DNA of 64,000 nt from Candidatus Nealsonbacteria bacterium. Its GTDB lineage: Bacteria; Patescibacteriota; Minisyncoccia; Minisyncoccales; JAUWAW01. How positions within the stretch are numbered: the first letter of the stretch is position 1; every line of letters begins with the position of its first letter. This document shows, in pieces, positions 3,901 through 63,873 of this stretch. The stretch lies in assembly GCA_030601865.1 (NCBI GenBank), contig JAUWAW010000001.1, forward strand, positions 46,433 through 110,432, in the 5' to 3' direction. Under the pieces are notes generated by a model. It ran no database searches. It saw nothing but the letters and a program-made list of their open reading frames with translations, and had not been told where the DNA came from. The position numbers and the translations under genes were made by a program.

Positions 3901-4149
3901 AGAGTAAGGGTGGGCGGCATTATTTCTGGCATTAAAAGGATTATCACTAAAAATGGCAAGCCAATGCTTTTTGTCAACTTGGAAGACCAGACCACTAAAG
4001 TTGAAGTCATTGCTTTTCCGGGGGTTCTGGAGAAAAACCCGAGTGTTTTCCAGGAAAATAAAATTGTTTTTGTTTCGGGCAGAGTAGACAGCCGAGACGG
4101 CGTGCCCAAAATAATTGCGGACGAAGTAGAAGAAATCGTGGAGAAATAA
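955..4149 (+). CDS. dnaE: DNA polymerase III alpha subunit
   Basis: 1064-aa ORF; PHP motif HLHVHSHYSLLDG at the N-terminus, pol III alpha core, C-terminal OB region. The real start is probably the ATG at 976 (MKFTHLHVHS). Confidence 0.95.
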   Translation: MIQYNNCMKFTHLHVHSHYSLLDGLPKIDQLLDYVKELGMDSVALTDHGVLYGAVEFYKKAKGKGIKPIIGCEVYVAYERMQQKRPNIDDKRYHLVLLAKNEQGYKNLVKLVTKAHLEGFYYKPRIDHQLLEKHASGLIGLSGCLQGRIPKLVIAGKTEEAEKLALYYQKIFGQDSFYLEIQDHPNLKEQQKVNNALIDFSKKLNIPLVATNDCHYLKSEDAEAQDILMLINTGSKQDDPERLTMKADDFSMRTPQQMSEFCAKQGAAEAVENTEKISQMCNFEFKLGETKLPFFETPNDKTPDEYLKELCYKGLGEKKKQIEKKKQAIERLEYELSVIKETGFAPYFLIVQDFVNWAKGERIVVGPGRGSDASSLVCYLLNITEVDPLKHGLLFERFLNKDRISMPDFDLDFTDRRRDEVIDYVAQKYGRDRVAQIITFGTMAARAVIRDVGRAMGVSYAFCDQTAKMIPFGSTLDECLEKVSEFRQLYDTDEQARKLIDSAKKLEGVARHASTHACGVVISKEPLTELVPLQHPTQNDENIVTQYEMHAIEDLGLLKIDLLGLKNLAIIEDTLAKIYVIHKKNIDISKIPFDDKKTFRIFQQAQTTGVFQCESSGFKRYLKQLKPTVFDDIVVMISLYRPGPIELIPEYIARKHKRKKIEYIHPSLKPVLEATYGLPVFQEQIMQIARTLAGFSLSEADVLRKAIGKKIKDLLEAQREKFIQGCIKKNISQGIAEKVFQWIEPHARYSFNKAHGTAYGMIAYQTAYLKAHYPLELMASVLTSEKTDVERVAFLIEECKDMGVEVLPPDINESYRHFSVVPEENKIRFGLLAIKNVGSNVVEAIVKERKERGIFKSVEDFISRISARDLNKRSLESLIKAGAFDKLAERKQLLFNLEKLLEWGRETQKTKTNGQKGLFDNTTYTATLVLEETAPASKKEKLEWEKELLGLFVTSHPLEEFKHIFAQKAISLQKISDGFINKRVRVGGIISGIKRIITKNGKPMLFVNLEDQTTKVEVIAFPGVLEKNPSVFQENKIVFVSGRVDSRDGVPKIIADEVEEIVEK

Positions 4150-4167
4150 CCCTACGAATTACGAATT
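4150..4167. repeat. TACGAAT-array element (family 5), short copy between dnaE stop and thrS start
   Basis: ccc-tacgaat-tacgaat-t immediately after the dnaE stop codon. Confidence 0.7.
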
Positions 4168-4174
4168 TACAAAT

Positions 4175-5914
4175 ATGTCAAACAAAAAAATAGAAAAAAT
4201 TCGGCATTCGCTGGCGCATATTATGGCTGCAACGGTTAAGGAGCTTTATCCAAGAGTCAAATTCGGTATTGGCCCGGCCATTGAAAATGGTTTTTATTAT
4301 GATTTTGATTTAACCTCTCCTCTGTTCCCTGAAAATCTGCCAAAAATTGAAAAGAAAATACGGGAATTGATTAGAAAAGATTTAAAGTTTGAGAAAGAAA
4401 GTATTTCAAGAACAGAAGCCAAAAAAATATTTAAAAACCAACCATATAAATTCGAATTAATTAAAGAACTAAAAGGGCTACAAGTTTCATGTTTCAAGTT
4501 TCATGATTTCGTTGACTTGTGCAAGGGGCCTCATATTAAATCAACCAAAGAAATAAATCCCAAGGCGTTCAAATTAACTAAAATCGCCGGGGCTTACTGG
4601 CGGGGTGATGAGAAAAACCCCATGCTCACCCGCATTTATGGCGTGGCCTTTGAAACAGAAAAAGAATTAAAAGATTATTTAAAACAAGTTGAAGAAGCAG
4701 AACAAAGAGACCATCGTGTTTTGGGTGAAAAATTGGACTTATTTCATATTGATAAAGCCATCGGCCCAGGCCTTATCCTTTGGCATCCCAAAGGCGCACT
4801 CCTCAAAAAAATCATTGAGGATTATGTGCTTTCAGAATACCTAAAAGCCGGCTATCAACTGGTTAACACTCCCCATATTGCTAAAATTTCCATTTGGGAT
4901 ACCTCGGGCCACACCAAATTCTACAAAGACAGTATGTTCCCAGTCATGCAACTCAAGGAAATGGGCAAGGTAATCCCTTATCAGCTCAAACCAATGAATT
5001 GCCCTTTTCATATCTTGATTTATCAAAAAGAAATTAGAAGTTATCGCCAATTACCTATCCGATACACTGAATTAGGCACGGTTTATAGATACGAGAAATC
5101 AGGCACCTTGCACGGGCTGACGCGAGTGCGTGGTTTTACTCAAGATGATGCTCATATTTTCTGCACTCCTGAACAACTTGGTAAAGAGTTAGTGTCTGTT
5201 TTAAAACTAACTTTAAAAATATTTAAAACTTTTGGTTTTAAAGAATTTGAGATATGTCTTTCCACCCGGCCAAAAAAATATGTTGGCACTTTAAAAAGTT
5301 GGCAGAAAGCCACCAATGCTTTAAAATATGCCTTGGAAAAAGTAAAACTTGCCTATCAAATTGACCCTGGCGAGGGCGTTTTCTATGGACCCAAGATTGA
5401 CATTAAAATCAAAGATTCTTTGGGAAGGGCTTGGCAGTGTACCACCATCCAAGTTGATTTCAATTTACCTGAGGGATTTAATTTAAGCTATATTGATAAA
5501 AAAGGCAAAAAGAAACAGCCCATTATGATTCACCGAGCGCTTCTGGGTTCTTTGGAAAGATTTATTGGCGTTTTGATTGAGCATTATGCAGGCGCTTTCC
5601 CTTTGTGGCTGGCTCCAGAACAGACTTGGATTATTCCCGTAGGTACCCGTCACAAAAAATACGCCCGTGAAACATGCAAACAACTCTACGAGAACAGTTC
5701 TCGTAGTATTGTAAAAGACGCCAATGAAACCGTTTCCAAAAAAATAAGGGAAGGGGAAATCCAAAAAATTCCCTATCTCTTGGTTGTCGGCGACAAAGAA
5801 ATAAAAAGAAAATCAGTTAGGGTCCGCCAGCGAGGCAAGGGCGATATTGGAAAAATGAAACTGAATAAATTTATAGAAAAATGCCAGAATTGTCTTTGCA
5901 AACGCAAAAATTAA
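4175..5914 (+). CDS. thrS: Threonine--tRNA ligase (no N-terminal TGS domain)
   Basis: 579 aa; HSLAHIMA editing-domain motif, class II core (YRYEKSGTLHGLTRVRGFTQDDAHIF), C-terminal anticodon-binding domain. Confidence 0.93.
   Translation: MSNKKIEKIRHSLAHIMAATVKELYPRVKFGIGPAIENGFYYDFDLTSPLFPENLPKIEKKIRELIRKDLKFEKESISRTEAKKIFKNQPYKFELIKELKGLQVSCFKFHDFVDLCKGPHIKSTKEINPKAFKLTKIAGAYWRGDEKNPMLTRIYGVAFETEKELKDYLKQVEEAEQRDHRVLGEKLDLFHIDKAIGPGLILWHPKGALLKKIIEDYVLSEYLKAGYQLVNTPHIAKISIWDTSGHTKFYKDSMFPVMQLKEMGKVIPYQLKPMNCPFHILIYQKEIRSYRQLPIRYTELGTVYRYEKSGTLHGLTRVRGFTQDDAHIFCTPEQLGKELVSVLKLTLKIFKTFGFKEFEICLSTRPKKYVGTLKSWQKATNALKYALEKVKLAYQIDPGEGVFYGPKIDIKIKDSLGRAWQCTTIQVDFNLPEGFNLSYIDKKGKKKQPIMIHRALLGSLERFIGVLIEHYAGAFPLWLAPEQTWIIPVGTRHKKYARETCKQLYENSSRSIVKDANETVSKKIREGEIQKIPYLLVVGDKEIKRKSVRVRQRGKGDIGKMKLNKFIEKCQNCLCKRKN
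5687..5705. repeat. Family-4 palindrome TACGAGAACAGTTCTCGTA inside thrS
   Basis: Perfect 9+1+9 palindrome. The 25-nt string ctacgagaacagttctcgtagtatt is identical to the one in mnmA at 40876-40900. Confidence 0.85.
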
Positions 5915-15948: not shown

Positions 15949-15954
15949 AATGAA

Positions 15955-16090
15955 ATAACCAATAACCAAGATACAATAACCAAACAAATCTCAATAACCA
16001 ATAATCAATAACCAATTATATAATGTTTGGTTATTGGTGTTTGAAGATTGGTTATTGTTTGGTTATTGTTTCTTGTATCTTGGTGATTGA
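15955..16090. repeat. ~130-bp long-hairpin repeat (AATAACCAA arm / TTGGTTATT arm), copy 1
   Basis: About 90 percent identical by eye to 56757-56883 and in the same orientation; lies between the nusG stop and the rplK start. Confidence 0.85.
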
Positions 16091-16639: not shown

Positions 16640-16652
16640 ATTTGAGCTCTAA

Positions 16653-16710
16653 TTCAAGATTATATATTTATACATTAGCGAATCAAGGTTCTAGCGGAGC
16701 GTTAGCGAGG
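16653..16710 (-). promoter_or_regulatory. Repeated promoter-like cassette, copy upstream of nusG
   Basis: Minus strand AGAACC..AGAACC-TTGATT(16686-16681)-N16-TATAAT(16664-16659)-CTTGAATT, 13 nt before the nusG ATG. Confidence 0.6.
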
Positions 16711-16717
16711 CAGGTTC

Positions 16718-16918
16718 TTATAATACAAACTTGTTCAGTAAAGTGCTAAATAAAAAGTCCACGCTCCCCAAAAAAATGGCCACAGCAATTGAGGCGCCAA
16801 TAACAATCAAAGTGTATCTCAAAGTCTCCTGACGAGTAGGCCAGTTAACTTTTTTAATCTCTAGTCGCACTTCTTTCAAAAAAGTGACAATTTTTTTAGG
16901 AAAGGCGCTAATAGCCAT
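16718..16918 (-). CDS. secE: Preprotein translocase subunit SecE
   Basis: 66 aa; EVRLEIKKVNWPTRQET followed by a single TM helix; canonical position upstream of nusG. Confidence 0.88.
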   Translation of the reverse strand: MAISAFPKKIVTFLKEVRLEIKKVNWPTRQETLRYTLIVIGASIAVAIFLGSVDFLFSTLLNKFVL

Positions 16919-16923
16919 GTTCT

Positions 16924-16992
16924 TAATTCAAGATTATATATTTATATATTAGCGAATCAAGGTTCTGACGAGCGTTAGCGAGGCAGGTTCTT
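16924..16992 (-). promoter_or_regulatory. Repeated promoter-like cassette, copy upstream of secE
   Basis: TTGATT(16960-16955)-N16-TATAAT(16938-16933)-CTTGAATT; near-identical to 16653-16710 and related to 62704-62829. Confidence 0.6.
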
Positions 16993-17052
16993 AAAAACGG
17001 CCTTGCCGGCCATTTTTTATGGTAGCAAGCTAAAAGCAGGATGTCAACCCAG

Positions 17053-21181: not shown

Positions 21182-21417
21182 TTTGCATTTTGTATTTTTA
21201 ATTTAGTTATAGCAGCTATCTCTCTGGCAATGCCCAGATGACAAAAACAATCATGCGCTCTATTGGGCAGAACATCAATATCCAAAATCCAATCTTTGCC
21301 TTTTTTCTCAACGCTCTCCACCTCAAAACTATGCATGGTCAAAAGCTGAGCCAAGTCCTTTGGTTTAGGCAGTTTCTTATTAAAAAAAGATTGTAGCCAA
21401 TTGTAAGAGAAAATCAT
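21178..21417 (-). CDS. pheT: Phenylalanine--tRNA ligase beta subunit, separate N-terminal segment (B1-like)
   Basis: 79 aa; MIFSYNWLQSFF...DIDVLPNRAHDCFCHLGIAREIAA matches the PheT N-terminus; no OB tRNA-binding domain. Confidence 0.8.
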   Translation of the reverse strand: MIFSYNWLQSFFNKKLPKPKDLAQLLTMHSFEVESVEKKGKDWILDIDVLPNRAHDCFCHLGIAREIAAITKLKIQNAK

Positions 21418-21419
21418 AA

Positions 21420-21457
21420 CCCTACGAATTACGAATTATTACGAATATACGAATAAT
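21420..21457. repeat. TACGAAT-array element (family 5), 4 heptamers, directly upstream of the pheT N segment
   Basis: ccc-tacgaat-tacgaat-tat-tacgaat-a-tacgaat-aat. Confidence 0.8.
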
Positions 21458-21460
21458 TAA

Positions 21461-33254: not shown

Positions 33255-34229
33255 ATGTCGTTTTCAATAGGCATTATTGGTCTGCCCAATGCGGGCAAGT
33301 CCACCCTATTTAAGGCCTTAACCAAAAAAGAGGTTGAAATCGCTCCCTATGCTTTTACCACTCGAGACCCCAATATTGGTATTGTTTCTGTTCCCGATAT
33401 AAGGTTAAAAAAAATTGCTGAAAAGATAAAGCCCCAAAAAATAACCCCCACTTTTATTAAATTTGTAGATATCGCTGGGTTGGTAAAAGGTGCCCATAAG
33501 GGAGAGGGTCTAGGCAACCAATTTTTGGCACATATTAGAAACTGCGATGCTGTGGTGGAGGTGGTGCGAGCTTTTGAAAACGCTGAAATAGAACATGTTG
33601 AGGGCTCTGTTGAGCCAAAAAGAGACATTGACATAATTAAAACAGAACTCTTGATGAAAGATTTGGAAATTTTGGAAAAATGCGGTCTTTTTCCAAAAAT
33701 TAAAGAGCAAGTATCTCAAGACAAACTAATTTCAGAAATGAATCTGTCGGAAGAAGAAAAACTTGCCATCAAAGAGTATCAATTTTTAACTGAAAAGCCC
33801 AGAGTTTTTGTTTTTAATGTATCGGGAGGCCATCCCGATAGGAGCGACGAAACGCTTTCTCTGGATCTCAAGTTAGAAGAAGAACTTTCTGAACTCTCAG
33901 AAGCAGAAGCAGAAGAATTAGGCATGGACTCCCAACTTGATAAATTAATCACCGCCTGCTACAATATCCTTGACCTGATTACTTTTTTTACTGTCACCGG
34001 GGGGAAAGAGACCAGGGCCTGGACTCTAAAAAAAGATTCAAAAGTGTTTGAAGCAGCTGGCTACGTCCATTCTGATTTTGCGGAAAAATTTATCAAAGCC
34101 GAAGTCATTCCCTGGCAACAATTAGTAGAAGCTCAATCCTGGACAGGGGCCCGTGAAAAAGGCTGGCTCAGAACAGAAGGAAAAGAGTATATAGTCAAGG
34201 ACGGAGATGTAATTGAATTCAAAATATAA
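33255..34229 (+). CDS. ychF: Ribosome-binding ATPase YchF (short form)
   Basis: 324 aa; GIIGLPNAGKSTLFKALT P-loop and C-terminal TGS-like domain (EGKEYIVKDGDVIEFK). Confidence 0.9.
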   Translation: MSFSIGIIGLPNAGKSTLFKALTKKEVEIAPYAFTTRDPNIGIVSVPDIRLKKIAEKIKPQKITPTFIKFVDIAGLVKGAHKGEGLGNQFLAHIRNCDAVVEVVRAFENAEIEHVEGSVEPKRDIDIIKTELLMKDLEILEKCGLFPKIKEQVSQDKLISEMNLSEEEKLAIKEYQFLTEKPRVFVFNVSGGHPDRSDETLSLDLKLEEELSELSEAEAEELGMDSQLDKLITACYNILDLITFFTVTGGKETRAWTLKKDSKVFEAAGYVHSDFAEKFIKAEVIPWQQLVEAQSWTGAREKGWLRTEGKEYIVKDGDVIEFKI

Positions 34230-34316
34230 CCCTACGAATTACGAATTCATACGAATATACCAATAATTATCCCTTATTAAAAATTCGTATATTCGTAAGT
34301 ATTCGTAATTCGTAGG
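34230..34316. repeat. Inverted pair of TACGAAT arrays (family 5) forming a ~27-bp-stem hairpin in the rpsF leader
   Basis: ccctacgaattacgaattcatacgaatata ... tatattcgtaagtattcgtaattcgtagg; the right end supplies the GGAG 5 nt before the rpsF ATG. Confidence 0.85.
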
Positions 34317-40488: not shown

Positions 40489-41640
40489 TTAACATATAAT
40501 TATTCCGCCGCCTAAAAGTTTTTCTCCTTTATAGAAAACCACTGATTGACCCGGGGTGACGGCGCGTTGGGGCTTGGCAAAAATTACTTTACAGCGCCTG
40601 CCCGCTATTTTTTTTATTGCTTCAACTTCAATTACTGGCGAACGATACCTTATTTTCGCTTTTATCCCAACTATTGGAGTTGAACTCCAATAGTTTGAAA
40701 TCCAGTTAACATCTTTGACAATCAATTCTTTTTTTTCCAAATGTTTTTCGTTCTTGGTGACAATTAAAGCATTATTTTTGACATCCTTGTCTAAAACATA
40801 GTATGGACCTCCGGCAAGCCCTATCCCCTTTCGCTGACCAATAGTATAAAACCACAACCCCTGATGCTCGCCAATACTACGAGAACAGTTCTCGTAGTAT
40901 TCTAAGATGGGGCCAGGATTTGTTTTAAGATGTTTTCTCAAAAATTCCTCTGTTGTTTTTTTAATAAAGCAAACTTCTTGAGATTCTCTGGCTTCAAGTA
41001 CCGGCAAGTCAAACTCCTTGGCCATCTGTCTTACTTGTCTTTTGGTGTAATCCCCAATGGGAAACAAAATGTGTTTTAATTGTTTCTGGCCCAACTGCCA
41101 TAAAAAATATGATTGATCTTTTTCTTTATCTTTTGCTCTTACCAATGTGTAATTTTGTATTTTTGTGTCAGAATTCTGCGACCTGCCCGTAATGCTTCGC
41201 ATAGCGATACAGGCGGGTCGCAGGATTTTGACACAGTTTAGATCTTTATTTGTATTTTCACATTTACGCGCATAGTGGCCAGTGGCAATAAAATCTGCGT
41301 CCAAGCCCAAGGCTTTTTTCAATAAAAGTCCAAATTTTATTTCTTTGTTGCAGACCACACAAGGGTTGGGGGTTCTGCCTCTTTTATATTCTTTCAAAAA
41401 ATAATTAATGATTTTTCTCTTAAACTCTTTTCTTAAATCCAAAACCAAAAATGGAATGCCTAATTTTTTAGCAATTTTTCTGACTCTTCTCTCACTTTCT
41501 CTGAAATGAGACGACTCATAAAGTTTCATAAAAACTCCTGTTACATTAAAATTAGCCCTTTTAAGAAGGGCTGCTGCTACCGAACTATCCACGCCACCGG
41601 ACATCGCCACTATTACCTTATTTTTTCTTTTTGCTTTCAT
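40489..41640 (-). CDS. mnmA: tRNA-specific 2-thiouridylase MnmA
   Basis: 383 aa; VAMSGGVDSSVAA, NPCVVCN, ATGHYAR, KDQSYFLW, CFI; carries two palindromic elements in frame. Confidence 0.92.
   Translation of the reverse strand: MKAKRKNKVIVAMSGGVDSSVAAALLKRANFNVTGVFMKLYESSHFRESERRVRKIAKKLGIPFLVLDLRKEFKRKIINYFLKEYKRGRTPNPCVVCNKEIKFGLLLKKALGLDADFIATGHYARKCENTNKDLNCVKILRPACIAMRSITGRSQNSDTKIQNYTLVRAKDKEKDQSYFLWQLGQKQLKHILFPIGDYTKRQVRQMAKEFDLPVLEARESQEVCFIKKTTEEFLRKHLKTNPGPILEYYENCSRSIGEHQGLWFYTIGQRKGIGLAGGPYYVLDKDVKNNALIVTKNEKHLEKKELIVKDVNWISNYWSSTPIVGIKAKIRYRSPVIEVEAIKKIAGRRCKVIFAKPQRAVTPGQSVVFYKGEKLLGGGIIIC
40874..40900. repeat. Family-4 palindrome inside mnmA
   Basis: atactacgagaac-a-gttctcgtagtat; encodes YYENCSRSI (thrS copy encodes YENSSRSI). 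Confidence 0.85.
41164..41235. repeat. Family-2 element (TGTGTCAAAATCCTGCGA/TCGCAGGATTTTGACACA), expanded copy in frame inside mnmA
   Basis: tgtgtcagaattctgcgac-[34-nt insert]-gtcgcaggattttgacaca; 72 bp = 24 codons (CVKILRPACIAMRSITGRSQNSDT). Confidence 0.85.
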
Positions 41641-51609: not shown

Positions 51610-51645
51610 TGTGTCAAAATCCTGCGATCGCAGGATTTTGACACA
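51610..51645. repeat. Family-2 element, perfect 36-bp palindrome, intergenic
   Basis: tgtgtcaaaatcctgcga|tcgcaggattttgacaca; contains GCGATCGC; identical to 56120-56155. Confidence 0.95.
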
Positions 51646-56119: not shown

Positions 56120-56155
56120 TGTGTCAAAATCCTGCGATCGCAGGATTTTGACACA
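56120..56155. repeat. Family-2 element, perfect 36-bp palindrome between dnaB and recR
   Basis: Identical to 51610-51645. Confidence 0.95.
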
Positions 56156-56160
56156 AAATT

Positions 56161-56754
56161 ATGTATCCAAATTCTATTCAAAAACTTATAGATTTGTTCT
56201 CCAAATTTCCCACGGTGGGTCCTCGGACGGCCTCGCGTTTTGTTTTTTATTTAATGTATCTTCCCAAAGAAAAAATTGAAGAACTCGTTCAAGCCATCTC
56301 TAATTTTAAAAACAAGATTAAACTTTGTCAGCTTTGTTTCAATCCCTTGGAAGGCGAAGGAGGCCTTTGCAAAATTTGTTCTGACCCTACCAGAGACAAA
56401 ACCTTGCTCTGTATTGTTGAAAAAGAAACTGATTTGCAAGCCATAGAAAAAATTAAAAAATATAAGGGTCTTTATTTTATTTTGGGAGGCACGGTTTCTA
56501 ATCTGAAACCAGAAGCCCTAAAAAAACTACGGCTCAAAGAATTAGAAGAACGGGTTAAAAGTCCTGAAATCCAGGAAGTTATCCTGGCAACCAATTCTAC
56601 TACCGAGGGTCAAGCCACGGCTTTATATTTACAAAGATTATTAAAACCCTTCAATAAAAAAATCGTCCAACTCGGACGAGGATTACCTATGGGCGGCGAA
56701 TTAGAGTATGCTGATGAAGAAACACTCTCTTCGGCTCTGGAGAGCAGAAGGTAA
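56161..56754 (+). CDS. recR: Recombination protein RecR
   Basis: 197 aa; HhH start, Cys4 zinc finger CQLCFNP...CKICSD, Toprim domain. Confidence 0.93.
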   Translation: MYPNSIQKLIDLFSKFPTVGPRTASRFVFYLMYLPKEKIEELVQAISNFKNKIKLCQLCFNPLEGEGGLCKICSDPTRDKTLLCIVEKETDLQAIEKIKKYKGLYFILGGTVSNLKPEALKKLRLKELEERVKSPEIQEVILATNSTTEGQATALYLQRLLKPFNKKIVQLGRGLPMGGELEYADEETLSSALESRR

Positions 56755-56756
56755 AA

Positions 56757-56883
56757 CACCAATAACCAAGAAACAATAACCAAACAAATTTCAATAACCA
56801 ATAACCAATTTCCAAACTGTTTGGTTATTGATGTTTGAAGATTGGTTATTGTTTGGTGATTGTATCTTGTATCTTGGTTATTT
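56757..56883. repeat. ~130-bp long-hairpin repeat, copy 2
   Basis: Between convergent recR and rplU; overlaps the last codons of rplU; same orientation as copy 1. Confidence 0.85.
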
Positions 56884-62664: not shown

Positions 62665-62703
62665 CAAAAAAAACAAACTGTAACAAAATCAAATTTCTTT
62701 TAT

Positions 62704-62829
62704 TTCAAGAATATATGTTTATACATTAGCGAATCAAGGTTCTTGAGCGAAGCGAGAGGTTCTTAATTCAAGAATATGTGATTATTCCTTAGCGAATCAA
62801 GGTTCTCGAGCGAAGCGAGAGGTTCTTAA
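62704..62829 (-). promoter_or_regulatory. Two tandem 63-bp copies of the promoter-like cassette
   Basis: 62704-62766 and 62767-62829. Each reads on the minus strand AGAACC-N14-AGAACC-TTGATT-N16-TATATT/CATATT-CTTGAA. Copy B supplies the last 9 codons of the murF-like ORF. Confidence 0.6.
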
Positions 62830-63873
62830 TTCTTCCACTATCTTGGACATCTCCATTTCTTGGGAGCCGTCGATGAGGATGAGGTCGCCTTGCCTAAGTT
62901 CTTTTTGCAGGGCCAGGCCGGCCTCTTCCGGCTGCATAAACTGGAAAACTTTTCCTTGGCTCATCCCCTGTATGATAGCTCCTTGAGTAATAAACTTGGC
63001 GCGCGCGCCTACTGTAAAAAGCAAATCGCAAGACCCGGCTACTTTCTCACCAATGGCCTCATGTGACTGAGTGGTATATTTGCCAATGCCCAAAACATCG
63101 CCCAAAACAGCAATTTTTCTGCCAGAAGCAGGGATTTTTCCTAAAATTCCCAGAGCCTCAACCATAGAAAAAGGGTTGGCATTGGCACTATCATCTAAAA
63201 TTTGGGAATTTTTTATCCCCTTAATTAGTCGCATCTTGCCGGGAAGGGATTGATAAAACCTGAGGGTCTGAGAGAGTTTCACTAAATTAATATCTAAGAC
63301 CATTCCCACAGCAGTAGCTGCCAGCACGCTATACATCTGTTTTTTGCCAAAAAGATTCTCCAGCCAAATCGGAACAATATTTCCTTTATAATTGAGTTTA
63401 AAATTTGTTCCCTTTTCACTTATATGAATATCACTTGCTTGAAAATCTGTTGCTTCAGAAAGGCCAAAAGTTAAAGCAGGGGTTTTGCTCTCATCCTTTA
63501 TCTCCCTGACCGTCTCATCATCAGCATTCAAAACCAAATGTGCTCGCCTCGCCGAAAACGGCGAGGCGAGGCGGGCCTGCTTTGGCAAAACTTTAGCCAA
63601 CTCTATTACCCTGACCACATCTTTTTTCTCCCCAGCAAACAAAACCTCATCAGCAGGTATCTCGCCTACGGCAGTAATCACTAAAATAGTTTTTCTTGCT
63701 TTTTTCACAAAAAAAAGGTCAGGAATGCCTTCTAAAATTAAAAATTTTGTTTTGCCAAAGTGCTTTTTTAGAACTTGAAAAATCGCCTCAGCCGCACAAG
63801 CCCGACCCTTGCCAGTGACAACGATTAGTATGGGACGTTTAATAAGAAATAAAAGTTTGGTGAGAAAACTCAT
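62797..63873 (-). CDS. Mur ligase family protein, MurF-like, short form with degenerate P-loop
   Basis: 358 aa; C-terminal MurF pattern VLGDVLGIGKY...HEAIG...GDLILIDGSQEMEM; N-terminal nucleotide loop reads VVTGKGRACAAE rather than TGSNGKTT. Confidence 0.65.
   Translation of the reverse strand: MSFLTKLLFLIKRPILIVVTGKGRACAAEAIFQVLKKHFGKTKFLILEGIPDLFFVKKARKTILVITAVGEIPADEVLFAGEKKDVVRVIELAKVLPKQARLASPFSARRAHLVLNADDETVREIKDESKTPALTFGLSEATDFQASDIHISEKGTNFKLNYKGNIVPIWLENLFGKKQMYSVLAATAVGMVLDINLVKLSQTLRFYQSLPGKMRLIKGIKNSQILDDSANANPFSMVEALGILGKIPASGRKIAVLGDVLGIGKYTTQSHEAIGEKVAGSCDLLFTVGARAKFITQGAIIQGMSQGKVFQFMQPEEAGLALQKELRQGDLILIDGSQEMEMSKIVEELRTSRFAREP
63543..63570. repeat. 12-bp perfect-stem GC-rich hairpin in frame inside the murF-like gene
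   Basis: ctcgcctcgccg-aaaa-cggcgaggcgag; encodes LASPFSARRA just before the LVLNADD motif. Confidence 0.85.

Follow-up and report, generated by a model that had tools for sequence, protein, structure and literature searches.

Two described kinds of small repeat come closest to the element reported here. Putative mobile promoters (PMPs) are upstream sequences of 50-100 nt, at least 80% identical to one another, that stand before non-homologous genes within and between genomes and are interpreted as promoters open to reuse (PMC3488235), and the Correia elements of Neisseria, or Correia repeat enclosed elements (CREE), are small, high-copy intergenic repeats regarded as promoter-bearing transposable elements of the miniature inverted-repeat kind (MITEs) (PMC10969869). 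The element in question is a cassette of about 65 bases found in a 64,000-nt stretch of the genome of a Candidatus Nealsonbacteria bacterium (contig JAUWAW010000001.1, positions 46,433 to 110,432; this whole stretch is referred to below as the window, and coordinates are counted from its first letter), where two copies stand before the genes secE (copy A) and nusG (copy B). It falls within the operational definition of a PMP, since copy A matches copy B at ~93% over 68 nt and identity across genomes is 92-96%. However, PMPs are a bioinformatic category without a common architecture, whereas the cassette is a defined unit, and it goes beyond PMPs in that its hairpin covaries, it brings its own stop codon, it forms tandem arrays and it is conserved throughout the clade. 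The 2012 survey of Matus-Garcia, Nijveen and van Passel reportedly spanned 1362 genomes, those of the candidate phyla radiation (CPR) being absent because they were sequenced later. Like Correia elements, the cassette lies preferentially just upstream of genes, carries a sigma-70-like promoter, varies between strains, occurs in either orientation and appears to affect transcript ends. Correia elements are nevertheless 100-200 bp in length, with terminal inverted repeats, a TA duplication and long RNA hairpins that are cut by RNase III, while the cassette has ~65 bp, no terminal inverted repeats, a single short hairpin and head-to-tail arrays, and thus lacks the inverted termini that define a MITE. 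In kind, it is best described from its sequence as a mobile, promoter-bearing small repeat that probably works like Correia-type repeats. The explanation favoured here, with a probability of roughly 70%, is a portable intergenic module that carries a stop codon, a hairpin and a promoter and that is proliferating in Nealsonbacteria-like Patescibacteria.

The cassette belongs to a family of small dispersed intergenic repeats of ~60-70 bp that occur singly or in head-to-tail arrays. Read on the sense strand, a unit consists of TAA-GAACC, a variable stem-loop, a second A-GAACC fused to TTGATT-N16-TATAAT or TATATT, and CTTGAATTA, and the consensus can be written as TAAGAACC - variable stem-loop - AGAACCTTGATTCGCTAA - (G/T)GTATAAATA - TATAAT - CTTGAATTA. 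The invariant 18-mer AGAACCTTGATTCGCTAA was scanned against one genome per prokaryotic species and matched at least 113 stretches. Among the matches listed, all but four or five come from metagenome-assembled genomes (MAGs) labelled Nealsonbacteria, Parcubacteria, Minisyncoccales or 'Saccharibacteria' and have cassette flanks; the remaining four or five are chance matches without them. A profile search of sampled related DNA found at least 180 cassette copies in at least 45 genomes, all of the same architecture. There were 106 singletons, the other copies standing in arrays of two to five units; all of these counts are lower bounds, and arrays often lie at contig ends or beside runs of N. One MAG held at least 28 copies within the 84 kb sampled from it. 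The named hosts are placed by the NCBI taxonomy in Candidatus Nealsoniibacteriota, Parcubacteria group, Patescibacteria. Across the family both AGAACC repeats, CGCTAA and CTTGAATTA are conserved at 85-100%, and the 92-96% identity between the window cassettes and those of other genomes compares with 75% for the only coding match at the DNA level. Copies of this identity stand before rplU, rpmI, pgk, prfA, ligT and others, and the genes downstream of cassettes are mutually unrelated (L21, L35, PGK, RF1, LigT, a sugar transferase, SecE, NusG). No description of such a family was found in the literature on promoters, transcription starts or intergenic repeats of Nealsonbacteria, Parcubacteria and Patescibacteria, and it is apparently undescribed so far.

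The window was originally credited with two near-identical minus-strand copies, before secE and nusG. Both are present, alike far beyond chance, and can be aligned over ~68 nt, where the only differences are one indel and about four substitutions. With a profile made from 80 unique family members, four full-length copies are recovered in the window, all on the minus strand (E 1e-16 to 1e-18), without any further significant match; a tandem pair, copies C and D, had been missed, and the true extents of copies A and B are those given in Table 1. The string AGAACC-N19/20-AGAACC-TTGATT-N16-TATAAT-CTTGAATT had been read correctly. The distance to the start codons had not: rather than lying 8-13 nt away, the cassette, which ends with CTTGAATTA, is separated by 5 nt from the ATG of secE and by 10 nt from that of nusG. 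The SecE, NusG, L11, sortase and PGM/PMM genes were confirmed with Pfam.

Several orthologous intergenic sites hold a cassette in one genome and are empty in another, as comparison of their flanks shows (L001 vs L092, L035 vs L061, L039 vs L025 and L103 vs L094, L-numbers being labels of the related DNA stretches compared). A five-unit array in L025 corresponds to an empty site in L072, and L005 and L015 share a filled site at which their cassettes face opposite ways. Within single genomes, identical hairpin variants are seven times as frequent as between genomes, tandem neighbours excluded, which points to intragenomic copying or homogenisation. The family thus displays what is looked for in a mobile element, namely presence/absence polymorphism together with many copies per genome. 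Terminal inverted repeats were not found: between the left end, TAAGAACCTGCC, and the right end read as its reverse complement, TAATTCAAGATT, only TAA is common. The units are flanked as TAA...TAA (on the left T in 91/95 and A in 89/95; on the right T in 96/98, A in 88/98 and A in 83/98), and empty sites often contain a single TA or TAA. In AT-rich DNA a duplication is inseparable from the ends of an element, and these flanks may be a 3-bp duplication or simply the element ends.

The insertion history is clearest at the secE-nusG-rplK locus, which was collected from 86 relatives with NusG 75-92% identical. A cassette before secE or nusG was found in 0/86 of these, and the secE-nusG spacer is at most 20 nt in most of them, which makes copies A and B lineage-specific insertions into an operon that was compact in the ancestor. 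In L118, among the closest relatives (NusG 92% identical), a cassette begins exactly at the nusG stop codon, before rplK. Five relatives (L115, L116, L117, L119 and L120) have a TTGACA-N17-TAxxAT promoter, a GC hairpin and a T-run directly before secE. The window keeps the equivalent region, and copy A is located between its leader hairpin and the secE ATG (16918). By its sequence, the hairpin with its T-run is terminator- or attenuator-like and common to the clade. After the -10 box of copy A come CTTGAATTA (16932-16924), AGAAC and the secE ATG. In copy B the first TAA (16720-16718) is itself the secE stop codon, the secE open reading frame (ORF) ending at 16718.

Other small repeats occur at this locus as well. 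The nusG-rplK spacer of the window contains an imperfect palindrome of ~135 nt rich in AATAACCAA (15954-16088), with a second copy at 56753-56883; its arms of 62-65 nt are 71-76% complementary, and it is MITE-like in shape. As this spacer is shorter than 20 nt in most relatives, the palindrome is taken to be another inserted small element. Rfam gave it only weak miRNA-precursor-like matches, on both strands, as any generic long hairpin does. A separate repeat family of ACGAATT / CCTACGAATTACGAATT units, present in the window at 4141-4189, 21411-21459 and 34221-34269, fills the secE-nusG spacer in L133, L187 and L192, where it produces false N-terminal NusG extensions (the 204-aa entries P0064 and P0097).

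The part of the unit that follows the second AGAACC has the form of a promoter. Its geometry was counted on 95 unique cassette variants. The spacer between the -35-like TTGATT and the hexamer beside CTTGAATTA is 16 nt in 70/95 and 15-17 nt in 85/95, and this hexamer is TATAAT in 43/95 and TATATT in 28/95, with A2 kept in 89/95 and T6 in 94/95. By sequence, these are the marks of a sigma-70-type promoter, i.e., recognisable hexamers at 16-18 bp spacing with A2 and T6 retained. Position and orientation agree with such a role. Over the 116 arrays or singletons with enough flank, the start of an ATG-ORF of 60 codons or more falls between -1 and +5 nt of the element end in 29 cases and within 12 nt in 33, and the first TAA of the element is the in-frame stop of an upstream ORF, likewise of 60 codons or more, in 39. 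The unit thus often reaches exactly from the stop codon of one gene to the start codon of the next, and the secE-nusG spacer is a case in point. Where both neighbours could be called, 64 contexts were co-oriented tandem, 15 reversed tandem, 12 convergent and 12 divergent. The start signals of the clade also bear on this point. Shine-Dalgarno (SD)-like pentamers at 6-8 nt precede only ~7% of ~1134 crude gene starts in related loci, and TATAAT-like hexamers peak 6 nt before ATGs both in the clade and in the window, which suggests that many mRNAs of the clade are leaderless. Given this scarcity of SD sequences and the -10 peak close to the ATG, a cassette lodged between a gene and its native -10 box, as in filled L001 relative to L092, would hurt expression unless it brought its own start site.

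These results bear on the original prediction. The lack of an SD sequence before secE and nusG is real, but it is a property of the clade and not of the cassette. The idea that CTTGAATT serves as a leader or translation-initiation motif of the genome is contradicted by its count in the window (5 vs 7.5 +/- 2.6 expected). Outside cassettes, TTGAATT lies within 15 nt of an ATG-ORF in 3.7% of cases, against 4.5% for composition-matched 7-mers in ~0.9 Mb of related DNA, although its direct abutment on an ATG is marginally raised (5/429). As described, TCTTGAATT adjoins the sortase ATG and TTGAATT the PGM/PMM ATG. However, the region upstream of the sortase gene has no significant match to the cassette profile (E = 7.3), and neither it nor the region upstream of the PGM/PMM gene counts as an extra copy. 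The two AGAACC repeats had been taken for an upstream direct-repeat site; their spacing of 8-42 nt and the covarying stem-loop that they flank speak against a spaced operator pair. The epithet 'strong' for the promoter is not borne out either, two of the four window copies (62701-62828) having weakened -10 boxes and a terminator behind them. What stands of the portable promoter is supported by the filled and empty sites, the conserved geometry, the co-orientation and the start codons at the element end, the operator and leader ideas having failed.

The spacing between the GAACC and AGAACC repeats varies (8-42 nt) because both flank a variable stem-loop, with covarying stems such as TGCC/GGCA, TGAC/GTCA, TCGCC/GGCGA and GAAAAAGC/GCTTTTTC. 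The outer Watson-Crick run averages 2.93, against 1.47 +/- 0.09 when halves are swapped among variants, none of 2000 permutations being as high. In the clean 12-nt class 94% of cells pair, compared with 76% in shuffles (0/500 as high) and 31-44% with slid partners, and both sides change in four of the six pairs. The two strands are not equivalent. Of 84 variants, 52 fold better on the strand opposite to the promoter and 10 on the sense strand (p = 3e-8), or 43 and 9 with DNA parameters, and the opposite strand has tandem G.A pairs in place of the TC/TC internal loop. Sequences of the form GCGN(N)AGC (GCGAAGC, GCGTTAGC, GCGGAGC) are present on the opposite strand in 40/84 variants and on the sense strand in 1/84; the exact DNA mini-hairpin motif, GCGNAGC / GCGNNAGC, in which the loop between two G-C pairs is closed by G...A, is carried by all four window copies on the + strand. 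The stem is followed on the opposite strand by TTCTTA and a T-rich flank. Under the consensus rule for intrinsic terminators, a G+C-rich stem-loop with a T-rich tract right after it, 37/94 cassettes are predicted terminators on the opposite strand and 0/94 on the sense strand; copy A has a poor T-tail, and the left flank of the cassette shows an A-preference compatible with a U-tail. As fold stability, GCGN(N)AGC content and terminator-likeness are all asymmetric, the functional hairpin is placed on the opposite strand, where its sequence suggests either an antisense terminator or a single-strand DNA copying signal, or both. The unit as a whole does not fold as RNA beyond shuffled sequences (z ~0, -0.1 to -0.2). 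A possible CUUGAUUC/GAAUUAAG helix was discarded, common variants (CTTAAATT and CTTGAAAT) breaking it without compensation.

The motif on the opposite strand has known counterparts. As DNA, the mini-hairpins melt at 76.5 C (GCGAAGC) and 69.5 C (GCGTTAGC), while the related GCGAAAGC is much weaker as RNA, with a melting temperature of 39 C, and the TTC-loop complements are unstable (PMC13037366). In nature, mini-hairpins are found in G4-type priming origins, in ssiA and in the promoter used by the virion RNA polymerase of phage N4, a 5-bp stem with a GAA or GGA triloop (PMC13037366). The cassette shares with the mini-hairpins of Hirao and colleagues the exact motif (GCGNAGC / GCGNNAGC), in 40/84 variants and on the strand opposite to the promoter. 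The known examples are phage or plasmid single-strand origins or promoters, and the likeness is used here as a lead to strand and type of nucleic acid, with no claim of membership. Repetitive extragenic palindromic (REP) sequences and bacterial interspersed mosaic elements (BIMEs) of enterobacteria, like the SPRITE, BOX and RUP repeats of pneumococci, are also extragenic palindromic units in intergenic arrays. Their stem-loops act at transcript ends, those of SPRITE being terminator-like, and REPs are mobilised as single-stranded hairpins by REP-associated tyrosine transposases (RAYT). A REP, however, has a conserved palindrome with a GTAG tetranucleotide, alternating orientation and no promoter, whereas the cassette has a variable stem, no GTAG, direct repeats and mostly promoter, and thus does not qualify as REP or BIME. 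The palindrome-associated transposable elements (PATEs) derived from IS200/IS605 and the attC sites of integrons resemble it in their lack of terminal inverted repeats and of a clear target duplication, in strand-specific hairpins and in the precedence of structure over sequence, and both allow integration beside a short fixed sequence, for which the TAA...TAA flanks of the cassette could stand. IS200/IS605 elements nevertheless have hairpins at both ends, and an attC site is a single imperfect palindrome, long and with inverse core sites; in the cassette, direct GAACC repeats stand on either side of one short hairpin.

In the favoured module, each part of the unit would have a task. Between co-oriented genes, its own TAA can act as the stop codon of the upstream gene. 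Transcription from its promoter would start ~6-8 nt past the -10 box, within GAATTA, and would give a leaderless mRNA or a very short leader without an SD sequence, as is normal for the clade; for secE the predicted leader would be ~8-10 nt and for nusG ~13-15 nt, with an SD in neither. Antisense transcription back into the upstream gene would be halted by the hairpin of the opposite strand with its TTCTTA and T-rich flank, and the same hairpin may be the structure that is recognised by an element-copying enzyme. At the locus described here, copies A and B would provide secE and nusG with promoters of their own inside the ancestrally tight secE-nusG-rplK operon, copy A at the same time bypassing the ancestral, terminator-like secE leader hairpin. 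A bolder version, which we put forward tentatively as possible but rather doubtful, is that the cassette represents, in the ultra-small genomes of CPR bacteria, a new class of mobile element without terminal inverted repeats, a self-insulated 'gene punctuation' unit copied through a strand-specific mini-hairpin of single-stranded DNA (GCGNAGC / GCGNNAGC) and actively splitting operons such as secE-nusG-rplK into genes with transcripts of their own. The punctuation would consist of a stop codon, a terminator of antisense transcription and a promoter of leaderless or near-leaderless transcripts, and a putative enzyme would read the mini-hairpin.

A number of observations weigh against the favoured module, and some of them suit another explanation, a small repeat that is selfish, in the manner of REPs, MITEs or PATEs, and spreads by virtue of its hairpin and conserved flanks, its promoter likeness being incidental and its biases of orientation and position reflecting tolerated insertions. 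The promoter, transcription start and terminator functions are read from sequence. The -35 hexamer TTGATT matches only 4/6 positions, native promoters of the clade using TTGACA or TTGACT. Recognition by sigma-70 alone is insufficient as an account of the unit, since TTGATT and its flanks AGAACC and CGCTAA are 92-100% conserved; a selfish repeat would explain why AGAACC x2, CGCTAA and CTTGAATTA, needless for sigma-70, are kept. About a quarter of the copies stand in non-promoter contexts, where they face a convergent gene from its 3' end or run directly into a terminator, and some contain 50-60-nt insertions between -35 and -10 that would destroy the promoter. In a differential decay test, the -10 box was of equal quality in copies abutting a start codon and in others, an independence from gene proximity that suits a selfish repeat. 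Copies A and B have partly decayed hairpins, which do not fold better than shuffled sequences. Neither terminal inverted repeats nor an unambiguous target-site duplication nor an associated transposase came to light, TnpA, RAYT and IntI not having been sought genome-wide, and for this reason the word mobile rests solely on presence/absence patterns. Tandem arrays, assembly breaks, a DNA-type mini-hairpin motif on one strand and the numerous further families of small repeats that these genomes contain also fit selfish proliferation. It leaves unexplained a spacer held tightly at 16 nt, T1, A2 and T6 of the -10 box kept as RNA polymerase requires, the start codon at most 5 nt from the element end in 29/116 sites and the co-orientation of 64 vs 15; moreover, cutting a gene off from its native -10 box (L001 vs L092) would be costly unless the element supplies a start. 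On balance, a purely selfish repeat seems unlikely.

The strand asymmetry could instead reflect a product of the opposite strand, either a short antisense RNA, with the 18-mer UUAGCGAAUCAAGGUUCU as its 5' part and the hairpin and U-tail as its 3' end, or a plain terminator module. The greater stability of the hairpin on that strand, its terminator-likeness (37/94 vs 0/94) and the A-preference of the left flank, which fits a U-tail, speak in favour, and conservation of the 18-mer beyond the -35 box would be accounted for. We nonetheless judge this quite improbable, as no conserved promoter can be placed there (by a consensus reading, the best -10-like hexamers lack a conserved -35), the loops are of DNA type (GAA triloop, GTTA) rather than the GNRA or UUCG of RNA, as RNA the mini-hairpin loses much of its stability (PMC13037366), and neither co-orientation nor abutment on the ATG would be explained. 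Very high conservation across genomes, and the presence of the cassette before several ribosomal-protein and other housekeeping genes, might be seen as signs of an ancestral, vertically inherited regulon promoter with an operator formed by the AGAACC repeats or a palindrome. Presence/absence data largely refute it: orthologous sites are filled or empty, the cassette is found at secE-nusG in 0/86 relatives whose spacers are mostly at most 20 nt, insertion points differ within one operon among close relatives (L118), and opposite orientations at one site and arrays of up to five identical units are known. Repeats spaced by 8-42 nt around a covarying stem are, besides, the opposite of an operator, and such a regulon is very improbable. 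Least credible, and clearly disfavoured, is a cis-regulatory RNA leader common to secE and nusG (a riboswitch, ribosomal-protein leader or attenuator), despite a stem-loop and a position directly before two genes of the translation/transcription cluster. Rfam covariance models gave no match to the cassettes even at E <= 1, folds are at z -0.1 to -0.2, the stem-loop precedes the predicted -35 box, no leader is left in the many genomes where the ATG adjoins the element, and the genes downstream are unrelated.

Further candidates were rejected. A phage origin was considered, the sole match in a viral contig being a chance one inside a methyltransferase-like CDS without cassette flanks. A CRISPR-like array is ruled out, as whole units repeat and unique spacers are absent. 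Considered on sequence only, LexA (a Cheo-box-like GAAC-N4-ATTC), dif/Xer-like and attC-like sites each fail in at least one defining position, and LexA was dropped also because the set of genes makes no sense for SOS control. For GAAC...CGCTAA as an extracytoplasmic function (ECF) sigma signal, the spacing of 7 nt is wrong. Within the window, Rfam found only two tRNAs above the gathering thresholds.

Table 1. Cassette copies in the window, their predicted parts and the ancestral signals upstream of secE
Feature	Position	Strand	Details
Cassette copy A	16924..16993	-	70 nt; full-length, nhmmer E = 2.3e-17; before secE
Parts of copy A		-	TAAGAACC 16993-16986; stem-loop spacer 16985-16967; invariant 18-mer 16966-16949
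Predicted sigma-70-type promoter, copy A	16933..16960	-	TTGATT 16960-16955, 16-nt spacer, TATAAT 16938-16933; scan 10/12
Hairpin, copy A	16967-16985	+	GCGTTAGC
Cassette copy B	16650..16720	-	71 nt; nhmmer E = 4.7e-18; fills the secE-nusG spacer
Parts of copy B		-	Stem-loop spacer 16712-16693; 18-mer 16692-16675; CTTGAATTA 16658-16650; nusG ATG 16639
Predicted promoter, copy B	16659..16686	-	TTGATT 16686-16681, 16-nt spacer, TATAAT 16664-16659; scan 10/12
Hairpin, copy B	16693-16712	+	GCGGAGC and GCGTTAGC; stem partly decayed
Ancestral secE upstream region (outside the cassette)	16996..17047	-	TTGACA 17047-17042, 17-nt spacer, TACCAT 17024-17019
Ancestral secE leader hairpin	17011-16999	-	GGCC-GGCAA-GGCC, then T-run; copy A immediately 3'
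Cassette copy C	62764..62828	-	65 nt; first unit of the tandem pair; degenerate -10 CATATT 62778-62773
Hairpin, copy C	62803..62821	+	TTCTCGAGCGAAGCGAGAG then GTTCTTAATT; GCGAAGC, tandem G.A pairs; flagged terminator-like on this strand only
Cassette copy D	62701..62765	-	65 nt; second tandem unit; junction TA common with copy C
Promoter-like boxes, copy D		-	TTGATT 62737-62732, 16-nt spacer, TATATT 62715-62710
Hairpin, copy D	62744-62757	+	Equivalent of the copy C hairpin

Copies C and D stand between a Mur-ligase-like gene and a P-type ATPase gene. The Mur-ligase-like ORF (62797..63873, minus) runs into copy C and ends with a TGA inside CCTTGATT, its last 10 codons (LRTSRFAREP; 62797-62828, minus) being encoded by the cassette. 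A terminator-like hairpin, GATTGGCT...AGCCAATT with a T-run, follows copy D (62665-62643, minus), and the ATPase gene has a predicted TGn extended -10 promoter of its own, TTGTTA-N16-TAAAAT (62639-62612, minus), 9 nt before its ATG. Copies A and B combine perfect promoter boxes with slightly decayed stems, whereas C and D have intact mini-hairpins and weaker -10 boxes. Given those weakened boxes and the terminator downstream, the tandem pair probably drives no gene, and from their sequence copies C and D look like orphans.

Some members of the family depart from the standard unit. Truncated units in L074, L029, L023 and L099 terminate at AGAACCTTGAA, as would result from a deletion running from one internal CTTGA(T/A)T repeat to the other, and a small hairpin, ATGCTTCGCAT, recurs beside them. 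Palindromic mini-elements of 50-60 nt lie inside certain cassettes (L043, L102, L099:4824-4900, L039:1814- and L003), their position, between CGCTAAGGTAT and AAATATATAAT, being the same each time, which hints at nested insertion that favours the AT-rich spacer of the cassette as a target. Elsewhere in the window, a perfect palindrome of 36 nt, TGTGTCAAAATCCTGCGATCGCAGGATTTTGACACA, is present in identical copies at 51610-51645 and 56120-56155, each just before a gene start, with a third, partial copy near 41218.

The genomes of CPR bacteria, or Patescibacteria, are deemed streamlined, and their transcription signals are almost without experimental knowledge. For such hard-to-culture organisms, the cassette offers a testable model of promoters and transcription start sites. 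It would also be a case of a small repeat rewiring operons, with private promoters provided for secE and nusG and a terminator-like leader bypassed. For those who annotate these genomes there is a practical side, as cassettes break MAG assemblies and create false N- or C-terminal ORF extensions, and they should be masked. Ultimately, the family provides a natural, one-strand context for the mini-hairpin motif, and it may point to a mode of copying based on single strands that does without inverted repeats or an obvious transposase.

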